From Verrucomicrobiota bacterium (GTDB lineage: Bacteria; Verrucomicrobiota; Verrucomicrobiia; Limisphaerales; CANJXF01), in the NCBI GenBank assembly GCA_038214755.1, contig JBBQRQ010000002.1, positions 64,001 through 128,000 of the forward strand: DNA of 64,000 nucleotides, read 5' to 3'. A model generated the notes under the pieces. It had not been told where the DNA came from, did no database searches, and saw nothing but the letters and a program-made list of their open reading frames with translations. Shown here piece by piece: positions 15,147 through 27,028 of this stretch (the stretch's first letter is position 1; every line of letters starts with the position of its first letter). The position numbers and the translations under genes are program-made.

Positions 15147-16541
15147 TCAGTCTTCAGCGCGCTCGCCATGCGGCGCCATCTTCACGAGCTTCGGATCGAA
15201 TTGGCCGATCGTTTCCACCAAGTCGGATTGCGCAGCCATGACCGTATGAATGTCTTTGTAAACCATCGGCGCTTCGTCAAGGCCAGCGGAAATGAGCGTC
15301 ACTCCGCGTTCGCGCAGAAATTGATTCACTGCTTTCCAATTGAAAGTTTGCGACGCGCGAGTGCGGCTCATGACACGTCCCGCTCCATGCGAAGCAGAAT
15401 GCAAAGATTCAGCATTCCCTTTTCCACGAACAACAAATCCGGGGGTCGCCATTGAGCCAGGGATTATTCCCAACACACCCGTGCCCGCTGGCGTGGCACC
15501 TTTGCGATGCACCACGACCTCACGCTCTACGCCCTCGATAACGTGCTTTTCTTTCCAGGCAAAGTTGTGGTGGTTTTCCAGATCGAGCAAGACCTGCGCG
15601 CCGAGATTTTCCGCGATGTGTTTATGAATGCAGGCGTGATTCGCGGCGGCGTATTGTCCCATCAATTCCATCGCGTTCCAATACTCCTGCCCTTCCTGCG
15701 AATCGAGCGACAACCACGCGAGCCGCTTCAATTCGCTCGGCAAATCGGGAAACTGGCTGAACGCGATCTTGCTGTAGTAATCGCAGACCGACGCGCCTGT
15801 GCCGCGACTCCCGCTGTGTGACAGCAACGCCACATAAGTGCCCGGTTCCAATTCGTTGATTTTCGAGTGCGCCGTGAATAGACCAAACTCGACAAAATGA
15901 TTGCCGCTGCCGCTCGTGCCGAGTTGCGACCACGCGCGGTCTTTGTTTTGTTTCGTAATTGGACTGACCGACCAGTCCGCGTCGAGCACGCCGTGGTGGC
16001 GACGCTCCTTGAAATTCGCGCCGATGCCGAAGCGCGTCTCCGCTTCGATGGCGCGCGTGAGCCGGTCCTGCTTGCGTTCCAGATCGCGCAACGGCAGATC
16101 GAGCACCGTCATCTTCATGCGGCACGCGATGTCCACACCAACGGCGTAAGGAATCACCGCGTTCTCGGTGGCCAGCACGCCGCCGATGGGCAGGCCGTAG
16201 CCCACATGCGCGTCCGGCATGAGCGCGCCCGCCACCGAGATCGGCAACAGACACGCCTTTTCCATCTGCATCACCGCCTCATGTTCCAAACCTTCGCCCC
16301 ATTGCCGATACTTCACCGGCTCGGCGCGCGGCGGCGGTGGCGCATGGAGCAACGCCTTCGCAAGCTCGCCGCGCAATGCGTCATCCACGAACGCCGCCGG
16401 ATTGGCGACAATGGCCGCGACATCTTCGTGCAACCGCGACTTGTCGCCGCCGCCGAGGATAAACTTGCAAACAAAATCCGTCGCGCGCCGGGTGGCCTCG
16501 CCGAGCGGAACTCCCGTTCGTAAAAAATCTTTCGCATTCAT
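15147..16541 (-). CDS. rtcB: RtcB-family RNA ligase
   Basis: MPDAHVGYGLPIGG, VGVDIAC, SGNHFVE, NHHNFAW, HRKGAT, SHGAGR. Confidence 0.95.
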   Translation of the reverse strand: MNAKDFLRTGVPLGEATRRATDFVCKFILGGGDKSRLHEDVAAIVANPAAFVDDALRGELAKALLHAPPPPRAEPVKYRQWGEGLEHEAVMQMEKACLLPISVAGALMPDAHVGYGLPIGGVLATENAVIPYAVGVDIACRMKMTVLDLPLRDLERKQDRLTRAIEAETRFGIGANFKERRHHGVLDADWSVSPITKQNKDRAWSQLGTSGSGNHFVEFGLFTAHSKINELEPGTYVALLSHSGSRGTGASVCDYYSKIAFSQFPDLPSELKRLAWLSLDSQEGQEYWNAMELMGQYAAANHACIHKHIAENLGAQVLLDLENHHNFAWKEKHVIEGVEREVVVHRKGATPAGTGVLGIIPGSMATPGFVVRGKGNAESLHSASHGAGRVMSRTRASQTFNWKAVNQFLRERGVTLISAGLDEAPMVYKDIHTVMAAQSDLVETIGQFDPKLVKMAPHGERAED

Positions 16542-16575: not shown

Positions 16576-17868
16576 TCACTTTTGCGCCTTGCTCAACTCC
16601 GATTCGATCTCCTCGACCGTCGGCAGGCTGCCCTTCAGATTCTTCGGCAGGGATTCGACGAGCTTGGTCTGCCATTGCGCGACGCCGATGGGCTTCTTCA
16701 AATCGCGCAACGCATATTCCACCGTCAAGTTGTCGCGCTCCTTGCACAGCAACAGTCCGATAGACGGCTTGTCATCTGCGTGACGCAACTGATCGTCCAC
16801 GGCGGAGAGATAGAAATTCATTTTACCGGCGAACTCCGGCTCAAAGGCTTTCATCTTCAAATCGATCACCACGTAGCTGCGCAACCGCAGATGATAGAAC
16901 AACAGGTCGAGATAATAATCCTGCCCGCCAATTTCCAGGTGAAACTGCCGTCCCACGAACGCAAACCCGACGCCGAGCTGAAGCAGGAACTTCTGGATGT
17001 GATCCAGCAAACCCAATTCAAGGTCGCGCTCATGCGCGTCGGCGCGGAGCGTGAGGAAATCGAAGGTGTAAGGGTCTTTGAGCGTCTGCTCGGCCAGATC
17101 GGATTGCACCGGCGGCAACGTGCGCTGGAAGTTCGTAACCGCCTTGCCTTCGCGTTTGTGCAATTGCGCTTCGATGTGGTGCGTCAGCACCGCGCGTGAC
17201 CAGCCATGCTCGACGGCTTTGCGCGCATACCAAAGGCGGTCAGCGGCGGATTCGAGTTTTTGCAGCAACACAATGTTGTGACCCCACGGCAGCGAAGCCA
17301 TTGGTTCGGGCGGAGCGGCAAATTCTGTTGCAGGCTGTGACAGTTTTTGCGCCGGGAATTCTCTTACAGCTTGTGAGAGAATCTGCGGTTCGGATTCTCC
17401 AAGTCGCTGAGGAAGAATCGCCTCCTCCGGCAATTGTCGCACAAGCTGTGCGACAATTGCCGAACCCGACTGAGCAGCCGCCTTTTTCCCGCCGCCCGGT
17501 AATTGTCGCACAGGTTGTGCGACAATTGCGTTCGCCGGTGCATAACCCAGGAAGAACGCCCTCATGCGATAAAGATTCTTGCGAGAAAATCCTGCCATCT
17601 CGGGGAACTCCTCGGTCAAGTCATGCGAGAGGCGATCAAGCACGCGGTCGCCCCATTTGTGCGTTTTCTGTTGTTCAACGATGGCTCTGCCAATGTCCCA
17701 ATACAACGCGATCAGCTCGCGATTGACGGAAACCGCCGCGCGAAGTTGCGACGCGCGGACGCGCATCTTGAGGTCGGCGAGAATGGTGGCGTAATCGGCA
17801 GGCAATGCGCTGGACGCTTTGCCGCCGATGGCTTTTGCCAAGCTGATGGTTGATTTCTTTTTCGCCAT
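16576..17868 (-). CDS. YhcG/DUF1016 PD-(D/E)xK nuclease-domain protein
   Basis: LYWDIG, LPWGHN, KDPYTFDFL, DLLFYHLRLRSYVVIDLK, GKMNFYL. Confidence 0.9.
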   Translation of the reverse strand: MAKKKSTISLAKAIGGKASSALPADYATILADLKMRVRASQLRAAVSVNRELIALYWDIGRAIVEQQKTHKWGDRVLDRLSHDLTEEFPEMAGFSRKNLYRMRAFFLGYAPANAIVAQPVRQLPGGGKKAAAQSGSAIVAQLVRQLPEEAILPQRLGESEPQILSQAVREFPAQKLSQPATEFAAPPEPMASLPWGHNIVLLQKLESAADRLWYARKAVEHGWSRAVLTHHIEAQLHKREGKAVTNFQRTLPPVQSDLAEQTLKDPYTFDFLTLRADAHERDLELGLLDHIQKFLLQLGVGFAFVGRQFHLEIGGQDYYLDLLFYHLRLRSYVVIDLKMKAFEPEFAGKMNFYLSAVDDQLRHADDKPSIGLLLCKERDNLTVEYALRDLKKPIGVAQWQTKLVESLPKNLKGSLPTVEEIESELSKAQK

Positions 17869-18032: not shown

Positions 18033-19166
18033 TCACGCTATCGCTTGGCGCAATTCGCCCGGCGAAACAATTGAAAGTTTCAGCCTATCCTGAACCCGCT
18101 CATACGCCGGGCCGTTCAATGGGCTGACCACATAGTTTTTCCCTTTTGGATACTGTTCGCGAAACGCCGCCAGCCCGCGCGTTTCAAACGCATCCGCTTT
18201 CCATTTGCATTCGATGGCGTCAACGGCATCGCGGCCGCGCGGCACGACGAAGTCCACTTCGCGCTGCTGTTTGTCGCGCCAGAAATGAATCTTCGGCAGA
18301 TTGGCGGCGATAAGGGTGTCCAGCACGAGATGCTCCCACAACACGCCGCAATCCTCCGTTCGCAAATGATCCCAGCCGCGCGCGTGGCAGACCAACCCCG
18401 TGTCAAAACCGAACACCTTCGGCTGCGCCACGATCTCCCGCCGCCCGCCTGCTGAAAACGGACGCACCAAATGCGCCACATGCGTGATCTGATAAACCTC
18501 CAGCCAGTTCGTGACGGCAGGCCGGCTGATCTGGCTTTCGGCGGCCAGCTTCGTCACGTCCAGCATCCCGCCGCTTTGGCGCATCAACAATTCCAGCACG
18601 CGCAGAAAACCGGCGCGTTTCTCCAGCCGGAAAAGCTCCTGGACGTCGCGCGCGAAATAGGAATCCTGCCACTCGGCGTAGAATTCTGGATTGTGTTTCT
18701 CCGCGAGCAGCGCGGGCGGCAATCCCCCGCGCAACAAACGTTCCCGCAAATCCGTCACGCCGAACGCCGCCAATTCCTCGTGCAACACCGGCACCAGCTG
18801 CACCACCCGCTTGCGCCCCGTCAGGCTGTCGCGGAACTTTTGCGTGGCCGCGAGCGTGGACGAACCCGTCGCCAGGATTTTCAATTTGGGAAAATCATCC
18901 GCGCCAATCTTCAACAGCCGGCTTGGATCGGGAAGCTGATGCACCTCGTCGAACACCACCAGCCGCTTTTTCACGGAACGGAAAAAACTCTCCGGATCGC
19001 GCAGCCGTTCCGCCACGCTGGGCAGGTCGCAGTTGAGAAACTCCGCGTCGGGAAAGCTCTGCGCCAGCACCGTCTTGCCCGCGCGCCGCGGCCCGCTCAG
19101 CCAGACAATGGACGCCTGTTTCCACGCGGCGACGAGCCGTTCAGTCCAAAAAGGTCGGTCAATCAT
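18033..19166 (-). CDS. AAA_14 ATPase + DUF4143 protein
   Basis: GPRRAGKT, FDEVH, ATGSS, C-terminal REVDFV..IECKW nuclease-like motif. Confidence 0.9.
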   Translation of the reverse strand: MIDRPFWTERLVAAWKQASIVWLSGPRRAGKTVLAQSFPDAEFLNCDLPSVAERLRDPESFFRSVKKRLVVFDEVHQLPDPSRLLKIGADDFPKLKILATGSSTLAATQKFRDSLTGRKRVVQLVPVLHEELAAFGVTDLRERLLRGGLPPALLAEKHNPEFYAEWQDSYFARDVQELFRLEKRAGFLRVLELLMRQSGGMLDVTKLAAESQISRPAVTNWLEVYQITHVAHLVRPFSAGGRREIVAQPKVFGFDTGLVCHARGWDHLRTEDCGVLWEHLVLDTLIAANLPKIHFWRDKQQREVDFVVPRGRDAVDAIECKWKADAFETRGLAAFREQYPKGKNYVVSPLNGPAYERVQDRLKLSIVSPGELRQAIA

Positions 19167-19172
19167 GGCAGG

Positions 19173-19208
19173 CAGACTTTACGTTTAGACGGCTAAAAGT
19201 AAAGTCTG
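19173..19208. repeat. Palindrome immediately upstream of AAA-DUF4143 gene 1
   Basis: CAGACTTTACGTTTAG-acgg-CTAAAAGTAAAGTCTG, 16-bp arms with one mismatch. Confidence 0.8.
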
Positions 19209-19304
19209 GATTCGGCGCGCGGCGTTTACGCCGCTTCAACTCCCGGCTGTTGAGCGCCGCAGAGATGCCTCACGATGTCGTGCGGTGAAGCGGACTGAAC
19301 TTTG

Positions 19305-19533
19305 AATCCCAACGGGATTCCAGCGTTCAGCCAAAGGTTGCGACGAAGGAGCTATCTTGGGTTCGCATCCCAAAATATCCACAACCCCAACGCGGGTTGC
19401 ATCGTTTTCATTTATCCGTTTCTGATTCACGGGCGGACGCAACTCCTTCAGAGTTGAAATTCTTTTTTCACGTTTTCCCAGGGTAGCTCGTTCCTCGCAA
19501 CCTTGGGCTGACTGACGAAATCCCGTTGGGATT
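19305..19533. repeat. Dispersed palindromic MITE/REPIN-like element
   Basis: AATCCCAACGGGATT...AATCCCGTTGGGATT ends; internal GTAGCTCGTTCCTCGCAAC shared with the copy at 28325-28596. Confidence 0.8.
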
Positions 19534-19547
19534 TTCAAAAGCATGAG

Positions 19548-19643
19548 CCGTCGCGCGCCGCGTGGCTTCACCCGGCGGCACGTCTTGGCGCGCCGAAGTT
19601 GGACGCAAGGGGGGACGAGACGGAGAAAATCTTTGGCGTTCAT
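19548..19643 (-). pseudogene. Second orphan copy of rtcB 5' end
   Basis: MNAKDFLRL, then an ~30-nt insertion, then VPPGEATRRAT; CGGCGCGCGACGG identical to rtcB. Confidence 0.85.
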
Positions 19644-19717
19644 GTCAAACAAGGGTCGTCCTCCCATTCGAGAACTTGCGCGTTCGTCGCCCCCGTCATG
19701 TCAGCCCACGTTTTCAC
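19640..19717 (-). pseudogene. 25-codon mini-ORF, probable internally deleted remnant of the gene between RNA ligase and rtcB
   Basis: [29 protein letters not shown] overlap with the ligase stop and ATGA overlap with the rtcB' start. Confidence 0.55.
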
Positions 19718-20454
19718 AACCAAATGTCCGTTCCTGCGGCGAGCCAGTTCGGAACCATCTTCTGATGCTGCCAGTGTTCGCTTTGCTGCACCTTCTCCAC
19801 AAACTCCGGACGGACCAGTTTGGCGCGGCCTGTCACATAGCCGTCGGCCTCACTGCGAACGTAAAGTCCTTCCATCAAATTGTCGGTCTTGCCCGTGATT
19901 GGATTTTCAAAAGCGCTGTCAAACGCCGATGGCACGATGAGCGATTCCAGTTCGTCTGCCTTGGCGCGACCGCGATGAACGATAGGCACAGTATGAAGGC
20001 CGGTTCCGTCCAACATTCGCTGACGAGCGGCGAGGTCGAGAAACTGCCCGGCGTCCTTGTCGTAAATGTCGAACTCGAAAAAGTAATGCGGTAGCTTGCA
20101 ATAGTGGACGGAGTGCTTCGCGTAGAGCCATTCGCCGTAGAGGATAAACTGATTACCGAGCATTCCTTCGAGGACTGGGCGCTTCACCGAAGTCCACTGC
20201 TTGAAGAGATCATATTGCGGATGCATGCCCTCGGTAATTTCGTGACCACGGCATTGCAGCACCATGCGTCCACGGGACGTGAAATGAATTCCAACGTTCG
20301 TGCCATCAATCTTCTCCGCCACAATCAACGAAGGGTCCGCGATCAACCTCTCAGATTCTTTTTGGCCAAGATGTTTGTCGCCAGCAGTTCCCTTCGACCC
20401 GAACAGATGCGGTGTGCGTGGGTATTTGATAAAATCATCGCGGGTCGCTCCCAT
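19714..20454 (-). CDS. ATP-dependent RNA ligase-family protein (Rnl2-like nucleotidyltransferase)
   Basis: [15 protein letters not shown] (adenylated Lys), LYGEW, EFDI, EGLYVR, RAKLV motifs. Confidence 0.85.
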
Positions 20455-20520
20455 AGCAGTAATCGAGTTTGGTTGAATTAAGTTGGGAGAGCGAGCTTTG
20501 ACGCCCGCTCTCCCGTTGTT

Positions 20521-20591
20521 TCATTCGTTCAAGAACAGTTTCCACTCCGTGATGCCGTGGGCGTTGCGGAGGAGCGCCGTGACCGGCAGTT
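20521..20591 (-). pseudogene. Orphan copy of HNH gene 3' end (LPVTALLRNAHGITEWKLFLNE*)
   Basis: 61/71 nt identical by manual alignment to 21946-22016. Confidence 0.9.
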
Positions 20592-20619
20592 TCCCGCCTT
20601 GCGCGACCGTGGTACGTTT

Positions 20620-21867
20620 TCACAGACAAGACCACGGGAGCGCCGTCACCTTGTCGTGTATTTGCAGCGGCTGACGGCAGCGGCAAATGATGTAGGCGTG
20701 CTTCGCGTGTTTCGGATGTTCACCCAAGAACGTCAGGAGATGACGCGCGTCGGAGAGCGTCGGGTTCTCCGTCCATTTCACTTCAATCGGCGTCAGGCCG
20801 CCTTCGCGCTGGATGATGAAGTCCACTTCCGCGCCGTCATGGGTGCGGAGGTAATGCAACGTGCCCGTGCCAAGGTATTGCAGGCGTTTCCAAAGTTCGA
20901 CTCCCACCCATTGCTCGAAGAGCGGGCCGGGATTCGCCAGCACCACATCGGTGTTGGGCCGCAACCCGGCGGCGGCGTGGCGGATGCCGAGGTCGAAGAA
21001 CAGGAAGCGGTCGGTGGAGAGCAGATTTTTTCGCGGGCTGCCGGAATATGCTGGCAGACGGAAGCCGAGAAACATGTCTTCCAAAAGCTGGTAGTGGCTC
21101 TTGATGGTCGGCACGGACAGGCCTACGTCCTTGGAAATTTTGTGGTAGTTCACCATCTGCCCGGACTCGACGGCGGCGAAGCGCAGGAAGCGCACGAACG
21201 CGGGCCAGTCCTTCACCATCGCTTCGCGCCGCATTTCCTCCTCCAGATGAAGTTGCGTGTAGGCGTGCAACATCTCGGCGCGATGCGCTTCGTCAGCGGT
21301 GACGACGCCCGGGAGTTCGCCGAAGGCGAGTCGTGTGAGCAGGTCGGCGCGCGGAAATGGTTTCGTCGGGCGCTTCCCGTCCGGCCAGTCGAGCGGCAAC
21401 GGCGGCGGGGCGTCAAACTCAGCGGGCGATTCGGCAGGCGGGCGTTCAGTCAGCGTGAGCGGAAAAAGGCGGTGCAAAAAGCTGCGGCCCGGCAGAAGGT
21501 TCGCGCCGGTCTGCCGCAACTTGCGCGCGGAACTGCCGCAGAGGATGAACCGCCAGCGTTTCTTGTCTCCGTCGTAAAGATGCTGCACGGCGTCGAACAG
21601 CGCGGGCACGTTTTGCGCCTCGTCCACGAACACCCACGCGCCGCCTTCGCGCTGTCGCAGGCCACGGCAAAGTGCGATGAGGTCGTCCGGGTGGTTGAGA
21701 TATTGCGCCCGCACCTTCGGAATGGAGAGGTCAATGCGCGCGGCGTGCGGCGGCAGGAGATTCTGAATGAGGGTGGATTTGCCCGTCTGCCGCGCGCCGA
21801 ACACGATATGCACATACGGGGCGGCGAACTTCTTTCGCCAAAGGGATTCGGGCCAGCGGGTGAACAC
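20620..21867 (-). CDS. AAA_14 ATPase + DUF4143 protein (second, divergent paralog)
   Basis: GARQTGKS, VDEAQ, LCGSS, AEVDFII..IEVKW. Confidence 0.9.
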   Translation of the reverse strand: MFTRWPESLWRKKFAAPYVHIVFGARQTGKSTLIQNLLPPHAARIDLSIPKVRAQYLNHPDDLIALCRGLRQREGGAWVFVDEAQNVPALFDAVQHLYDGDKKRWRFILCGSSARKLRQTGANLLPGRSFLHRLFPLTLTERPPAESPAEFDAPPPLPLDWPDGKRPTKPFPRADLLTRLAFGELPGVVTADEAHRAEMLHAYTQLHLEEEMRREAMVKDWPAFVRFLRFAAVESGQMVNYHKISKDVGLSVPTIKSHYQLLEDMFLGFRLPAYSGSPRKNLLSTDRFLFFDLGIRHAAAGLRPNTDVVLANPGPLFEQWVGVELWKRLQYLGTGTLHYLRTHDGAEVDFIIQREGGLTPIEVKWTENPTLSDARHLLTFLGEHPKHAKHAYIICRCRQPLQIHDKVTALPWSCL

Positions 21868-21876
21868 GGCTTGGTT

Positions 21877-21922
21877 TTAATCGCCTGTTATTGAAAGTCA
21901 ACTTTCAATAACAGGCGTTTAA
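21877..21922. repeat. Palindrome immediately upstream of AAA-DUF4143 gene 2
   Basis: CGCCTGTTATTGAAAGT-ca-ACTTTCAATAACAGGCG perfect 17-bp arms, flanked by TTAA. Confidence 0.85.
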
Positions 21923-21945
21923 TGAAAACGCGATTCGCGCGCACC

Positions 21946-22203
21946 TCAGGCATTGAGGAACAGTTTCCACTCCGCGATGCCGTGCGCGTTTCGGATGAGC
22001 GCCGTCACCGGCAGTTCCTTCGGCGCGCGCGGAACGTTGAGCAATTTCAATACGGCTTCGTGCGGCAGGCGGTTGCCCTTTTTCGAGTTCACCGCTTTGT
22101 TCGCCCAGACGCAATTCTCCCACGCATCTTTTCCGCCGCGCGAACGTGGCAGGATATGATCGATACTGCCTTCCTCCGGCTTCAGAATTTTGCCGGTGTA
22201 TTG
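21946..22203 (-). pseudogene. HNH endonuclease, 5'-truncated
   Basis: QYTG..SIDHILPRSRGG..WENCV..NSKKGNR; sequence upstream of QYTG is tRNA-like rather than coding. Confidence 0.8.
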
Positions 22204-22224
22204 GACCAGCCTCCCGGAATTGAA

Positions 22225-22302
22225 TGGTGCGGCAACCGGGAGTTGCACCCGGACGAACGGAAGACTTGCAGGTCGCCGCCTGGGCTACTCGGCTAATAGG
22301 AC
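22225..22302 (-). pseudogene. Chimeric tRNA pseudogene: tRNA-Cys(GCA)-like 5' half fused to another tRNA 3' half
   Basis: GTCCTAT-TA-GCC GAGTAGCCCA GGC-G-GCGAC CTGCAA|GTCTTCC..CCGGG TGCAACT CCCGG TTGCCGC A CCA; acceptor strands do not pair. Confidence 0.65.
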
Positions 22303-22310
22303 ATCAATCG

Positions 22311-22515
22311 TTACTCTCGGAAGTAATGATCGCGCCGACTTCCGTCATAGCAGCCAGACTGCAATCAACAATTTTTGAAAGCTGCGTCCTGAGCCGCACG
22401 AACAAAGATCGTTGCGTCCGAGCTTTTCATGAAGCTCCTTAGTTCCATAAACGATGCGGGAACCTTTTTTCAAGCGAGTTTCCGATGGATACCCTTTGCG
22501 ACGTTTGCTGGTGAT
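22311..22515 (-). CDS. Small SEC-C metal-binding motif protein (recoded or pseudogene)
   Basis: [35 protein letters not shown]; +1 frame continues [21 protein letters not shown]; no ATG/GTG start; absent from the ORF track. Confidence 0.7.
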
Positions 22516-22634
22516 CTCGAAAAAACGGGCTGTCTTGATGAACCGATTGATTTCCCTTACGGCCTCCGGCTTAGGGGTTGTGGTTGTGAATAACTAATGC
22601 TTGAAATTTTTTCCTTCTAACGCGACAACAGAAC

Positions 22635-22757
22635 TGCGCGACGAACAGCTTTGATCCAAATACCGGCTTTGAGATCTTTGTGCCGGGGCGTGGATTGCTC
22701 CTCGGAGCAGTATTCCGCTTGCGGAAGCGCCTATCTCCTTTGAGCGTTCGCCGCGCA
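22635..22757 (-). ncRNA. Candidate structured ncRNA (~123 nt)
   Basis: 5' TGCGCGGCGAACGCT pairs with 3' AGC(T)GTTCGTCGCGCA; internal hairpins TTCCGCAAGCGGAA, TGCTCCGAGGAGCA, CCGGC..GCCGG. Confidence 0.5.
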
Positions 22758-22771
22758 TTTACTTTTTGAAT

Positions 22772-22848
22772 TGGTCAGGAAGCCGGCATTTGCACGCGGA
22801 CCGTCTCCTTCACAGGGAGAGATGCTGCTAATTACACCACGATCCTGA
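22772..22848 (-). tRNA. tRNA-His(GTG)-like, atypical or degenerate
   Basis: TCTCC-CTGTGAA-GGAGA anticodon arm; encoded CCA; bulged acceptor stem; imperfect T stem with TGCAAAT loop. Confidence 0.65.
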
Positions 22849-22854
22849 TTTGAG

Positions 22855-22938
22855 CGCGGAACGCAGAACGCGGAACGCGGAAAGAAAAACTCGCGCGCGA
22901 TTGATCTGATTTCCACGTTCCGCATTCCGAGTTCCGCG
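22855..22938. repeat. Inverted heptamer (GCGGAAC)n hairpin spacer
   Basis: About four CGCGGAA units mirrored by TTCCGCG-like units. Confidence 0.75.
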
Positions 22939-22945
22939 TTTGAAA

Positions 22946-23019
22946 TGCTCCCACGTGGACTTGCACCACGAACCTTCTCCTTCGCAGGGAGACATGCAGT
23001 TCTATTACACCTTGAGAGC
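22946..23019 (-). tRNA. tRNA-Arg(GCG)-like
   Basis: Full cloverleaf: GCTCTCA/TGGGAGC acceptor, GTGT/GCAT D stem, TCTCC-CTGCGAA-GGAGA, CGTGG-TGCAAGT-CCACG; CCA not encoded. Confidence 0.8.
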
Positions 23020-23027
23020 GGAAAGAA

Positions 23028-23112
23028 ATTTACGATTTACGAATGACGATTTACGCGGGCAAATCCAAATCGTCAGCCGACTCGTAAATCGTAAATCCAA
23101 AATCGTAAATCG
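23028..23112. repeat. Inverted heptamer (ATTTACG)n hairpin spacer
   Basis: ATTTACG units mirrored by CGTAAAT units. Confidence 0.75.
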
Positions 23113-23115
23113 AAA

Positions 23116-23143
23116 TGGTATCCGTGGCCGGACTTGCACCGGC
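23116..23143 (-). pseudogene. tRNA 3'-half remnant
   Basis: GCCGG-TGCAAGT-CCGGC-CACGGAT-A-CCA with no matching 5' half. Confidence 0.75.
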
Positions 23144-23260
23144 TAGGTGGTGGAGATGAAGCGGTCGCGGAAACGTTTTAAAACGTCGCAAATAAAAGGA
23201 GCGGCATGACGGTGAATGAGTTGTTGATATTTTTCATAGCGGGAAAGTGGCCGGAACCCT

Positions 23261-23386
23261 CCACCGTTTCGAGTCTTTTCGTCGGCCTGCGCTACGCTCC
23301 GGCCTCCTCCAAGACTCGAAACGGTGGGAAGAATAAATCACTGAAGGTTTGATCGCACACACTGAAGGTTTGATCGCACCGCGACA
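23261..23386 (-). mobile_element. Solo transposon/IS end remnant
   Basis: Minus-strand TGT terminus at 23386, two perfect 20-bp repeats CACTGAAGGTTTGATCGCAC (23339-23358, 23360-23379), and a 17-bp hairpin at 23261-23327. Confidence 0.55.
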
Positions 23387-23422
23387 GCTACAAATCTGAG
23401 TCGTGGCGACGGCGCGCTGCTC

Positions 23423-23493
23423 GTAGCCGCCGACGTGAGGAGGCGGATTCCGATCGGAAAACCACGAAACCGCCTCCTCACGTCAGCGGCTAC
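23423..23493. repeat. GTAG-type REP doublet
   Basis: GTAGCCGCCGACGTGAGGAGGCGG ... CCGCCTCCTCACGTCAGCGGCTAC. Confidence 0.8.
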
Positions 23494-23540
23494 AACTTAT
23501 GAAATTTTGATGGAGCGCGAACCAGATTTTTCCCGGAGAT

Positions 23541-23939
23541 TTATTCCTTTTTCTTTTTGAAAAATCTTGGGCCAGCCTCGCCTTGTCGTTGTTGAACTTT
23601 GAGTTGGCCAAGAATGGAGACCCAACCGATAAAAATTTTATGCCATTGATTTTCCATGCTGCGGATGACGCCATCGGCCATTTCGCTGAGGTAGCGAATG
23701 GAGGGCGCGCTCGAGATCAGGGCGAGGACGTCTTCCTTGGTCGGGGAGGGGCATTCCACGGAAGCGAGGATCAACTCCATTTCCTGAACGATGACGCTTT
23801 TGACTTCGAGGAATTGGATCTCGTCTTCGCTGCTGAATTTTTTTGAGCGGGCGAGGTTGACGAAATAATTAAATTGCTTGAGGCATTCCAAATAATTTTC
23901 CAACTGCAGGATGAGTTGTTCGTGGTCTTGGTGGCGCAT
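23541..23939 (-). CDS. Hypothetical helical protein
   Basis: Clean ORF, third gene of the response-regulator operon. Confidence 0.7.
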   Translation of the reverse strand: MRHQDHEQLILQLENYLECLKQFNYFVNLARSKKFSSEDEIQFLEVKSVIVQEMELILASVECPSPTKEDVLALISSAPSIRYLSEMADGVIRSMENQWHKIFIGWVSILGQLKVQQRQGEAGPRFFKKKKE

Positions 23940-23944
23940 AAAAT

Positions 23945-24247
23945 TTAATCGTTGTAGGGCTGAAGTCCTTTTGGTTTGAGAAAAATAATGGCTCCGCCGC
24001 GAAGCTCGCGCGCGGTGATTTTAAAGCCGCCATAACGCACGATAATTTCGGACAGAGGCAAAGCGGCCTTGCGCGCATCCTGGAATACGCCCAAAACGGT
24101 GCCGCTGATCTCGCCCATGTATTTTTGGGAGAAGGAATGCGGCAAGGTCGAGGCGAGCAAACGGCCCAGCGCATCGACGGTGAAACTGCCCGAAGGCAAC
24201 CGCGCCAGTTTCGGAATCGGTTTGGAAAAAATATTTAAGAAGCCCAT
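23945..24247 (-). CDS. Hypothetical protein, possibly roadblock/longin-like
   Basis: Start MGFLNIFSK overlaps the upstream stop; short alpha/beta pattern. Confidence 0.6.
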   Translation of the reverse strand: MGFLNIFSKPIPKLARLPSGSFTVDALGRLLASTLPHSFSQKYMGEISGTVLGVFQDARKAALPLSEIIVRYGGFKITARELRGGAIIFLKPKGLQPYND

Positions 24248-25311
24248 TTGATTGAGATGTTTTTTAAGGTTTCGTAAAGTTGGTCCGCGCTCAACGTGCG
24301 CTTGAATCCAACGCAAAGTTCCGTGTCGCCGCGCGAGGCGATTCCTATGTGCCGCTGCAATCCCAGCCCTTCAACCTGCTTTAAATCGCCCGCCTGCAAT
24401 TTTTCTCCGAGGTCGCGCAAGCGTTTTTGGGTTTGTCGGGTCCACGCCGCGACCGGGCTGGAATTTTCCAGTCCCCAGGAATCCGGCGCGGCTTTTTGAT
24501 CGGCGGGAACGGTCATGACAAATTCCACGCCATCGATGCGCGAGAGAGCGGCCAGCGGGGAGCGCGTCAAAAATTTCGTGTCGCACGCGGCGGTTTGCGC
24601 GGAGGATTCCGAACCTTTATTCTCGTCAAAGGCCTGGGCGAAATCCAGAAGCAATCCTTGATAGGGAGTTAAGATCACCCGCACATGGTCCGGTTCACCA
24701 GGCAAAATCTCGAAGCTGCCATTTTTCCACGACAAAATTTCTTTGAAAGCTGCTTCGCCACTCATGGTCAAGGTCGCCGCATCCATCACTTCGCCATCCG
24801 TCACCCAAATATTTCCCTGCCGGCCTTCCTTCGTGATTTTCAAAACAGAGGAACTGTGCGAGAGACATTCCAATTGGATCAGATCAACCAGGCTCTTGCT
24901 TTGGATTCCGCGAAACCCGTTATCGACCTGCTGGCCGAGCAAGGATTCGATGCACTCGCGGAACAGATTTATTTCCTCTGACGTGCTGGGCTTTTCCCAA
25001 AATAAATCGATGCCCATGGCGTAAGCGCGAGTCCGATATTGTTCATCGACCACCGCCGTCATCACGACGATTCGCAGTTGAGGAAATTTCCGGCGCACGA
25101 TGGAGAGCACTTGCAGTCCATCCATCTTGGGCATCCGCAAATCAGAAATGAGCATCGTAAACGGCTCGGATTCCAGTATGGCAATGGCGCGCGCGCCGGA
25201 AGTGGAGGTGTGGATTTCCGGCTGGCTGGGCAATTGCCGGAGGACCTCCTGAAACAAATCGAGCAAGTCCTGCTCATCATCCAGCAGTAAAATTTTATGG
25301 GGTTGGGACAT
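24235..25311 (-). CDS. Response regulator: receiver + DUF4388/PATAN + C-terminal roadblock-like domain
   Basis: LLDDE, ISDLRMP, MTA, EKP receiver residues; GFRGIQSKSLVDLIQL..GEAAFKEILSWKNGSF. Confidence 0.85.
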   Translation of the reverse strand: MSQPHKILLLDDEQDLLDLFQEVLRQLPSQPEIHTSTSGARAIAILESEPFTMLISDLRMPKMDGLQVLSIVRRKFPQLRIVVMTAVVDEQYRTRAYAMGIDLFWEKPSTSEEINLFRECIESLLGQQVDNGFRGIQSKSLVDLIQLECLSHSSSVLKITKEGRQGNIWVTDGEVMDAATLTMSGEAAFKEILSWKNGSFEILPGEPDHVRVILTPYQGLLLDFAQAFDENKGSESSAQTAACDTKFLTRSPLAALSRIDGVEFVMTVPADQKAAPDSWGLENSSPVAAWTRQTQKRLRDLGEKLQAGDLKQVEGLGLQRHIGIASRGDTELCVGFKRTLSADQLYETLKNISIKWAS

Positions 25312-25429
25312 TGGTCTTGAAAATCAGGACATTTTAATTTGGCGCAAAAAATGCGAACCGCACAGAACGAATGAAAATGCAATCAGTGAAAATAACCGCG
25401 ACAGCCACACTTTATTAAAGGTTAAAAAC

Positions 25430-27028
25430 ATGTTTGGATCACTCAAAAAATTATTCCGTAAGGACATGGACGCTGGCCTAGCTACTTCTATTCCAGAGAC
25501 ATTTCATTCCACCGCAAGCCCCTCGTGGGCGTCGCGTCCGGATGCGCCCGCCACCATGACGTTTTCTCCCGAAATTCTCGCCCCTACTCCTTCTCTTACG
25601 GGAGTGGCAAGTTCGGTCGAGATTGTGGCATTGCCGGTGAGAAGCATCCTGGCTTCGTTGCCCAGTACGCTAACTTCTCTTGTCCAATCTCAGGGCAACG
25701 GCTTTGTCAACCTGTCCGCAAAGCGGATTTTGCAAGAGCTACCTAAGGGTTCGGTAAAACTTCCTTTTGCCGAAATTCGGCACGCCGCTCCCAATGGAAC
25801 TTTTTTCGACAACGCGCGTTTCGATCAGATGCTGATCGAACTGCCGCTGGCCGAAATTTTGTCGCGGCTCCATCCTTCTCTCTTGTCGCGCCGCGCCAAT
25901 CAAAAACAAACTTTTGTCTCGCTGGAAGTCACCAATATTTTCGGTCCGCGCGGTCAGGGTATTTCGATTAGCCAGCCTGAGAGATCGTTCAAGCCCGCGC
26001 CAGCAGTCGGTGAGACGACGAATGCCCACGATGCGACGCCCACCGCCATGCCGACGTTGGCCATGCCAATTGCAGTTCCAATCGTGTCTCACGTTCCGCA
26101 ACTCCGAGTGCTGCCCCCCGAACCTGCGCTCGCCGGAAATGCGGATCGGCTGGAAATCCCGATCGCCGCTCTTTTCGAAAAATGGCCGCAAGCCATTCGG
26201 AGGGAGATAGCGGAATCTGATTTGATTCAGGCAACGATTTCTTTTCCGATGGACAAGATTGAGCCGTTACTGAAAGCCGGAAAAATTATTTTTACCTGGC
26301 AACAAATCTGCCAATGGATGCAACCGCGCGTCAAAAATGTTTCCGCCGAAGAGGATCTGCCCCTTGAGTTGCCGCTCGAAATCGTCGCGCCCCTTTTTAT
26401 GGCGCAACACCGCCCGGCCAAAGCACAGAAGAAAATTTCCATGGGCGAAATCCCGGACCTGTTCACCAACCTCAAAACGGAGCGAGTCGCCGTTTTGAAA
26501 CACGAAATCACCGCGCCGGTCCTGCACCTGGAATCCATCGCGGCGCCTCCGAAAATAAAACCATTCGTGATGCCCGTGGCAGTAGAATCTGTTCCTGCGC
26601 CGGTTGAAATAGAACCGGCGGTCGCGCCGATCCAGCCAGAGAATCCGGTCGGAGAAATTTTTGGGCGCGCGGAAAAACAGGATTGGTCACCCGGCGAGAT
26701 CGTGAAAAATTTGGCGGCAATGCCCGACTTGGATGGAGCATTCATCGCCATGCAGGACGGGCTGCTGGTCGCAGCAGAATTACCGGGGAAATTCAAAGCG
26801 GAAACGGTCGCCGCTTTTCTCCCGCAAATTTTCGGACGCATGAATCAATACGCCAAAGAGCTTCAACTAGGCGGTCTCTCCAGCCTGGCTTTCGAAGCGG
26901 AAAACATTTCCTGGCAAATCGTGAAGGCAGAAGGCGTCTATCTCGTGGTGCTGGGCAAACCGGGCCGGGATTTACCGAAGGCAACACTCAACACAATCGC
27001 GAACGCAGTCAGCAAACAGATTCAATAA
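25430..27028 (+). CDS. Large protein with C-terminal roadblock/LC7 (MglB-like) domain
   Basis: LAAMPDLDGAFIAMQDGLLVAA C-terminal domain; Pro-rich linkers. Confidence 0.75.
   Translation: MFGSLKKLFRKDMDAGLATSIPETFHSTASPSWASRPDAPATMTFSPEILAPTPSLTGVASSVEIVALPVRSILASLPSTLTSLVQSQGNGFVNLSAKRILQELPKGSVKLPFAEIRHAAPNGTFFDNARFDQMLIELPLAEILSRLHPSLLSRRANQKQTFVSLEVTNIFGPRGQGISISQPERSFKPAPAVGETTNAHDATPTAMPTLAMPIAVPIVSHVPQLRVLPPEPALAGNADRLEIPIAALFEKWPQAIRREIAESDLIQATISFPMDKIEPLLKAGKIIFTWQQICQWMQPRVKNVSAEEDLPLELPLEIVAPLFMAQHRPAKAQKKISMGEIPDLFTNLKTERVAVLKHEITAPVLHLESIAAPPKIKPFVMPVAVESVPAPVEIEPAVAPIQPENPVGEIFGRAEKQDWSPGEIVKNLAAMPDLDGAFIAMQDGLLVAAELPGKFKAETVAAFLPQIFGRMNQYAKELQLGGLSSLAFEAENISWQIVKAEGVYLVVLGKPGRDLPKATLNTIANAVSKQIQ

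Follow-up and report, generated by a model that had tools for sequence, protein, structure and literature searches.

A decayed spare tRNA array in a Verrucomicrobiota genome and a tRNA family with A18 and G55 in place of G18 and U55

To our knowledge, G18 and U55 are taught as universal features of tRNA. Residue 18 intercalates in the T-loop and contacts residue 55 (PMC4810234), and pseudouridine 55 has been described as the most conserved tRNA modification (PMC7912444). The window analyzed here, a stretch of 64,000 nucleotides from a Verrucomicrobiota bacterium, departs from this arrangement on its minus strand, where four tRNA-derived elements lie between positions 22225 and 23147. G is found at position 55 in all four T-loops, and AG in all three D-loops that are present. 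An earlier note on this DNA reported these bases, which we confirmed on the minus strand, and regarded them as a concerted covariation marking a distinct tRNA class that may escape elbow-recognizing nucleases or sensors. Are these ordinary tRNA genes in decay, or do they preserve an alternative elbow contact, and if so, what could it be for?

The Arg(GCG) gene (22946-23019) is the only complete cloverleaf among the four elements. It carries A18 (23003, D-loop AATAGAACT) and G55 (22964, T-loop TGCAAGT at 22959-22965), has A8 replacing U8, is the only element matched by the Rfam tRNA model (RF00005, 48.4 bits), and is the sole one of the four whose minimum-energy fold is the cloverleaf. Default ARAGORN failed to call this intact gene. 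Its encoded CCA, kept in nine of nine aligned homologues, has been lost. The His(GTG)-type gene (22772-22847), identified by ARAGORN, has A18 at 22829 (D-loop AATTAGCA) and G55 at 22793 (TGCAAAT, 22788-22794) but no cloverleaf fold, its T-stem being damaged by two changes relative to homologues in which that stem is paired. The gene also has A73, lacks the G-1:C73 pair and possesses an irregular acceptor stem, as do its homologues (L025, L037); His tRNAs with the normal G-1/C73 are present in other arrays. Alignment with five array Cys homologues and a BLAST search of the 3′ half identify the Cys(GCA) element (22225-22302) as a chimera, in which a Cys 5′ half with A18 (22286, D-loop AGTAGCCCA) is joined to an unrelated 3′ half that carries G55 (22246; TGCAACT, 22241-22247) and ACCA and does not pair with it. 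The last element (23116-23147) is the 3′ remnant of an array tRNA-Glu(UUC), consisting of the T-arm (TGCAAGT, 23132-23138; G55 at 23137), the 3′ acceptor strand and ACCA, with the 5′ half absent. Its match to array Glu(UUC) homologues is limited to their 3′ end (23112-23148), and the intact homologues have an AG D-loop and a TGCRA T-loop. A fifth TGCAAGT (22264-22270) was rejected as a T-loop, being the anticodon loop of the Cys element, and the idea that the Cys and Glu elements are armless mini-tRNAs was also rejected, as comparison with homologues shows them to be deletion or fusion products. A genus-level repeat region (23146-23390) adjoins the Glu remnant and stands in place of its missing 5′ half; palindromic and 7-mer repeats also fill the spacers at 22855-22945 and 23030-23110.

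The remnant sits upstream of genes for an RNA ligase and RtcB on the same strand. Between the His and Cys elements, likewise on the minus strand, is a small reading frame, delimited stop to stop, with a SEC-C motif (22345-22593; PF02810 above cut-off) that is conserved among DNA homologues inside homologous arrays. Next to the Cys element and on the same strand lies the C-terminal half of an array-linked HNH endonuclease (21946-22204; Pfam HNH), which shares 75-82% DNA identity with full-length copies only from 22204 downward, the N-terminal half having been deleted. The minus-strand genes that follow encode, by Pfam matches, an AAA_14 and DUF4143 protein (20620-21867), an ATP-dependent RNA ligase family protein (19714-20454; PF09414, E 1e-33), a second AAA_14 and DUF4143 protein (18033-19166), a DUF1016/YhcG PD-(D/E)XK nuclease-domain protein (16576-17868) and, as the last of the same-strand run downstream of the array, the RNA ligase RtcB (15147-16541; PF01139, E 7e-87). 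With half a Glu gene, a damaged His gene, a chimeric Cys element and a truncated HNH gene, the locus is what decay has left of a spare tRNA array, and the array in this genome is probably no longer functional.

A conserved structured element of 133 nt also lies on the minus strand here (22634-22766; fold z = -4.84) and has no Rfam match. It is present in 30 of 201 genomes of the order, mostly away from tRNA arrays (loci L375-L403), with a long closing stem, an apparent pseudoknot judged by eye, and compensatory variants in L384, L394 and L396. About 50 nt downstream of it is a conserved short motif, which we take to resemble a DnaA box. The element was set aside as a part of the array, given that a G55 tRNA or array marker protein occurs within about 1.5 kb in only three of 29 loci. 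It is a candidate new structured RNA or mobile repeat.

Whether decay could also have produced the unusual bases was assessed with intact relatives, gathered by BLAST over 61 genomes and by pattern scans. Their tRNAs were parsed using a purpose-built cloverleaf finder that ignores positions 18, 19, 55 and 56, with position 18 called heuristically. Relatives in Verrucomicrobiota and in viral contigs harbor up to 20 or more A18/G55 tRNAs (up to 21 parsed per locus), and these intact homologues combine the same swap with base-paired stems and CCA ends. The three broken elements out of four might suggest that ordinary tRNA genes decayed at random, but such decay is thereby refuted as the source of the swap, retains virtually no probability as an explanation of the family, and accounts only for the other lesions seen here. 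The earlier note had called the pattern too consistent for decay; that holds for the swap, which was inherited from an intact family, but the window copy itself is decaying. Its description of the T-loop as TGCAA needs a similar adjustment, since G55 is invariant across the family whereas position 57 is A or G about equally.

G55 was found in 366 of 381 unique tRNAs from 46 bacterial array loci, 22 of which were selected with a pattern containing AG and the remainder without it. Viral contigs were selected solely on two adjacent G55 T-arms (141 matches) and provided 680 unique tRNAs in 87 loci longer than 1 kb. Among the viral tRNAs with C56, those with G55 have only AG in the D-loop in 295 cases and only GG in two, while those with U55 have only GG in 276 and only AG in five. 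The same division is present within the 29 viral clusters that mix both types (AG-only to GG-only 113 to 1 with G55; GG-only to AG-only 250 to 4 with U55). When all 1644 unique tRNAs were pooled, the 1076 with C56 and G55 comprised 992 AG-only, six GG-only, 33 with both and 45 with neither, and the 379 with C56 and U55 comprised 329 GG-only, six AG-only, 38 with both and six with neither. A single D-loop G is preceded by A in 717 of 787 cases, compared with 492 of 2357 other D-loop positions. In G55 tRNAs with a purine at position 56 (n = 121), 107 D-loops have A followed by a pyrimidine, which indicates that the 19-56 pair flips while A18 stays. Close ortholog pairs that differ at position 55 (24 non-overlapping) include 14 clean AG/GG switches, one with GG on both sides and nine that are ambiguous to the parser; the exceptions with a short GG D-loop and G55 amount to four of 33 rows. 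Since the sequences include relatives of one another, the number of independent events is smaller than these counts suggest. We consider the covariation of positions 18 and 55 near certain.

The distribution of the family is patchy, with the tandem G55 pattern in nine of 401 genomes of the phylum and one G55 tRNA pattern in 31 of 251 genomes of the order. Searches of plasmid and phage isolate collections returned single-tRNA matches only and no close array. All 25 tRNAs of phage T5 and all 20 parsed tRNAs of a Bxz1-like phage have the canonical U55. Caulobacter phage CcrColossus carries an unannotated A18/G55 tRNA-Phe(GAA) (L328, 13820-13891) amid otherwise U55 tRNAs, and in the mixed viral clusters no isotype is swapped more often than Phe (11 of 16).

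A comparison with the housekeeping tRNAs of the same genome provides a further view of the swap. Out of 44 tRNAs parsed at strict score, 42 have U55 and a GG D-loop, which speaks against chance as the origin of the array bases, and His(GTG), Cys(GCA), Glu(UUC) and Arg each have a canonical gene apart from the array. The other two are stand-alone Glu(CUC) genes, and both are A18/G55. Of 61 genomes from the order, 45 were matched by a Glu(CUC) search pattern blind at both positions, and one unpublished genome was omitted from these. The remaining 44 divide into 18 with A18/G55 and 26 with G18/U55, with no mixed combination and one match per genome except in the genome studied here, whose Glu(CUC) differs from that of genome G031 at only positions 18 and 55 of 53 bases. 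Outside the order, none of 78 matching genomes has G55 in this tRNA. In genomes of family f79 (e.g. G074 and G107), Glu(CUC) departs from U55 in a different way, combining C55 with G18. An RpoB tree was built from 40 genomes, two of them outgroups; the unpublished genome was omitted, as were four in which RpoB had no match and two in which the match was partial. On this tree the Glu(CUC) state changes seven times, compared with a mean of about 12.7 for shuffled states, and at least three of the changes are forced by well-supported branches. Some of these switches could be explained by whole-gene transfer. The flip does not track the array, as both states occur among genomes with an examined array locus. 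GAG makes up about a third of the Glu codons in the long frames of this genome (11306 of 35685), although the genome has a canonical Glu(UUC) as well. Since Glu(CUC) carries the swap, A18/G55 likely works in ordinary translation and is not specific to arrays.

These results bear on several proposals of the earlier note. A concerted A18-G55 covariation is strongly supported by the viral, pooled, Glu(CUC) and RpoB-tree counts; homologous arrays that mostly show GG/TTC, or independent variation at 18 and 55, which it named as outcomes that would speak against it, were not what we found. The housekeeping set is canonical in all but the two Glu(CUC) genes. A class confined to arrays does not survive, given the swapped stand-alone Glu(CUC) and the single viral clusters that mix both types. 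Independence from TruB holds by definition, there being no U55, although the host nevertheless encodes TruB.

The two Glu(CUC) genes of this genome lie close together (L330, G000:C5:70457-72830). A 3′ fragment follows at a distance of 1.4 kb, and the small genes around it resemble toxin-antitoxin modules by appearance. The region is likely an integration hotspot. Elsewhere in the genome (G000:C26:6279-6368) is a Ser-type tRNA with anticodon ACT, which is rare in bacteria.

The array tRNAs of the family also show signs of working as tRNAs. The 898 G55 tRNAs from bacteria and metagenomes have 45 different anticodons and between them represent 20 amino acids. CCA is encoded in about 95% of cases. 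Discriminator bases fit the isotype (Cys U73 in 52 of 53, Asp G73 in 43 of 43, Asn G73 in 52 of 52, Leu A73 in 112 of 113), and the Ala identity pair G3-U70 is present in seven of seven. For 256 of the 898, against 55.5 expected, the closest canonical relative shares the isotype, an excess which indicates that the set was not expanded from one gene and that each isotype was swapped on its own scaffold. The 7/5 cloverleaf and identity elements are found in Arg(GCG) and in the family, and not in the His, Cys and Glu remnants of the window. The canonical G18/U55 contact is absent from the window elements and the family alike, while the 19-56 tertiary pair, judged from sequence, is G19-C56 in most. 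At other positions the array tRNAs drift more than housekeeping ones (U33 in 85%, U8 in 78%); this drift and the loss of D-loop uridines would equally fit a design with few modifications or relaxed selection. Among 113 Leu tRNAs of arrays, 92 have a short variable arm; A73 and C33 are frequent in array Gly(GCC), and array Asp(GUC) has U37 (e.g. L030 2344-2571 and L049 12731-12959).

Intact arrays have a recurrent set of neighbors. By tblastn, RtcB or Ro60 accompanies at least 13 of the 17 long arrays, with RtcB at no fewer than 10, HNH at 11 and a LysR regulator at seven; Pfam confirms the Ro60, RtcB, HNH, RlaP, SPFH and LysR families at array loci. Several viral clusters made up entirely of G55 tRNAs are also near RtcB, Ro60 or HNH. 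Array loci further contain Y-RNA-like genes, of which 58 of 65 have TTC in the T-loop; a D-arm could be located in 34, and these include 30 of the GG/TTC type but no AG/TGC. Four to five of these genes stand in tandem inside arrays L015 (2010-2500) and L049 (9500-10500). Within one locus, a canonical Y-RNA-like elbow beside swapped tRNAs speaks against mutation bias or a cause at the DNA level and points to selection on the reading of the RNA elbow. This genome has no TROVE match, and no Y RNA is present in the window, where a search for YrlA over 19000-26000 at E ≤ 1 gave no match.

The closest known system is the Anabaena L-array, a spare tRNA set that lies beside an HNH gene and is co-regulated with rtcB; it is silent until induced by translational stress, and its tRNAs are charged and found on polysomes (Santamaria-Gomez 2021). 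Verrucomicrobia are listed among the phyla with L-arrays, and Opitutus terrae PB90-1 appears in the L-array survey with an array of 18 genes. As in the L-array, the intact homologues form long, closely spaced tRNA runs on one strand, of which the window retains a four-element remnant only. They are likewise supernumerary to the housekeeping set and patchily distributed, and have HNH and RtcB neighbors in the window and in homologues alike. The HNH copy in L045 is homologous to the one beside the Anabaena trn operon. The present family is almost wholly G55, in contrast to GG/TTC in all 17 tRNAs parsed from the Anabaena array, and in many intact relatives of the window locus Ro60, Y-RNA-like genes and a LysR regulator are present in addition. 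In the text available from the L-array paper, G55, A18, the T-loop and the D-loop are absent from the main article, and G55 and the T-loop from the supplement. The intact loci also resemble Ro60/Y RNA/RtcB repair operons in having TROVE/Ro60, RtcB and several Y-RNA-like genes, the latter scoring below the Rfam gathering thresholds (41.5 against 69 bits for YrlA, RF02553; 47.1 against 80 bits for Deinococcus Y RNA, RF01053). The window tRNAs are not of the YrlA type, in which permuted T- and D-arms are placed on a Ro60-binding stem; such RNAs are separate genes in the homologous loci.

Precedents for the altered loop come from several RNAs. T-loops contain UNR or GNR turns, tRNA using the rarer U-clamp, and G at the second position with an intercalating base is established for the GNR-turn, G-clamp T-loops of 23S rRNA and riboswitches; the accessible part of that survey describes no GNR T-loop in tRNA, which it gives as the U-clamp case (PMC2615604). 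The A18-G55 geometry proposed here would be the tRNA counterpart. Natural bacterial tRNAs without G18 and U55 exist in the staphylococcal non-proteinogenic tRNA-Gly, which has U18/U19 or C18/U19, has lost G19-C56 and involves one isotype (PMC4574755), whereas the A18/G55 family keeps 19-56, has A at 18 and includes all isotypes. Irregular tRNA polycistrons from soil are also known from the allo-tRNAs and tRNA0/1/2, and a supplement lists two partial or pseudo tRNA0 rows from metatranscriptomes with a TGC T-loop; in the longer of the two, the D-loop reads AG (PMC5389517). Allo-tRNAs have 8/4 or 9/3 stems and extra loops (PMC5389517; Mukai 2017) in contrast to 7/5 in the parsed homologues, and even the His-type gene with its irregular acceptor stem has a 5-bp T-stem. 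The portions of text and supplement available for PMC5389517 mention neither G55 nor A18.

We asked how the alternative elbow might be built and what it might serve. With G55, the U-turn of the T-loop would take the GNR instead of the UNR form, with A18 intercalating between residues 57 and 58 and contacting G55 as its matching partner. The exposed 19-56 face, which is read by RNase P, the ribosome and T-boxes (PMC4810234), would stay available to RNase P and the ribosome. In an intact locus, the operon would be induced upon damage to host tRNAs, RtcB and the ligases would repair RNA ends, the Y RNAs with host-like elbows would act either for Ro60 or as decoys, and translation would be kept going by the recoded tRNAs, which proteins reading the universal T-psi-C loop would recognize poorly. 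We see about an even chance that this overall reading is correct, namely that the window holds an eroded spare array, that the swap keeps the elbow folded, and that the intact set would be a stress back-up poorly seen by T-psi-C readers. As to the purpose alone, escape from proteins reading T54-psi55 has about even odds, with escape from nucleases or sensors, as the earlier note suggested, plausible and a reduced need for modification enzymes next. Escape is favored on two grounds: the set lies in an RNA-damage operon beside Y RNAs with host-like elbows, and a bacterial tRNase has been described whose cut in the T-loop falls at the junction of T and pseudouridine (PMC9086364). Against it stand the flips of Glu(CUC) irrespective of the array and the Anabaena L-array, which does its work with canonical elbows, with U55 likewise kept in T5 and the Bxz1-like phage. 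A more far-reaching version, which we hold only tentatively, is that A18/G55 with a GNR T-loop may form a second self-sufficient elbow, available to all 20 isotypes and used by bacteria and phages as a self/non-self mark that hides the complete spare set from an undiscovered family of tRNases or decay factors reading the T-loop; the set would be deployed with Ro60, Y-RNA decoys of canonical elbow and RNA ligases for recovery from ribotoxins, and the elbow would have been recruited into the housekeeping Glu(CUC).

The swap could instead mark a pool of tRNAs with few modifications, whose elbow would be stable without pseudouridine 55 or Gm18 and would work before or without host enzymes. Such tRNAs are by definition not substrates of TruB or TrmH, and other modification targets are reduced as well. 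U at 16, 17 or 20 is found in 362 of 718 bacterial and metagenome G55 tRNAs against 41 of 42 housekeeping tRNAs and 14 of 17 in the Anabaena array, Arg-GCG outnumbers the inosine-dependent ACG by 73 to 5, and U8 is replaced in 22%. The difference in D-loop uridines is small in viral tRNAs, however (209 of 301 against 238 of 298), the host has its own TruB, and the G18/U55 of Y-RNA-like genes at the same loci is left unexplained. Loss of truB is mild in model bacteria. On balance we regard this explanation as rather unlikely, though the closest of the alternatives. It is less probable still that A18/G55 is a near-neutral alternative pair without special purpose, which became fixed once in an array lineage and from there spread through inheritance, transfer and gene conversion. 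The repeated flips of Glu(CUC) irrespective of the array, the mixture of both types in many viral clusters, and the existence of canonical arrays (the Anabaena L-array, T5 and Bxz1-like phage) are all consistent with it, but because 20 isotypes keep their own identity elements, a whole array would have needed many separate double changes, and G55 is nearly uniform in the bacterial array-locus tRNAs (366 of 381) and missing from the neighboring Y-RNA-like genes.

Two further explanations assign the swap to something other than translation. The tRNAs may be aminoacyl donors or nuclease sponges, comparable to the Staphylococcus aureus non-proteinogenic tRNA-Gly without G18, G19, U55 and C56 (PMC4574755). 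A sponge role has been proposed for L-array tRNAs (PMC8421152), and some array isotypes have odd anticodon loops. That is hard to reconcile with 45 anticodons and their matching identity elements, with the retained 19-56 pairing, or with a swap on the only Glu(CUC) genes found in 18 genomes, given the share of GAG among Glu codons in this one (11306 of 35685), and we judge it improbable. At the DNA level, a change from TTC to TGC would remove a T-arm site for integrases, recombination or the linked HNH, with A18 merely compensatory. The HNH gene adjoins 11 of 17 loci, and the duplicated Glu(CUC) of this genome, with its 3′ fragment and toxin-antitoxin-like flanks, resembles an integration site. 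TTC is nevertheless kept in the Y-RNA-like genes of the same loci and in all host tRNA genes, the Glu(CUC) 3′ fragment itself has G55, and a homologous HNH stands beside the canonical Anabaena array, so that self-immunity against the HNH is disfavored and a DNA-level cause in general very improbable.

Natural A18/G55 tRNAs described as such were not found in the literature searched, with older in-vivo selection papers outside its coverage. D- and T-loop selections by the Steinberg group reportedly yielded functional suppressors with non-standard bases at 18 and 55, and the structural possibility of such a pair may thus already be in print. The present family adds a compensated natural alternative to G18/U55, represented by over a thousand distinct sequences. 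It also exposes a blind spot in annotation, since A18/G55 genes are under-called by gene finders, as with the Arg(GCG) gene missed by default ARAGORN and the unannotated Phe gene of CcrColossus. The housekeeping Glu(CUC) alleles that differ by two bases make the role of the G18-psi55 contact and of TruB directly testable. If the purpose of the swap is escape, T-loop-reading nucleases or sensors that have gone unrecognized would be implied, and an orthogonal tRNA scaffold would be available.
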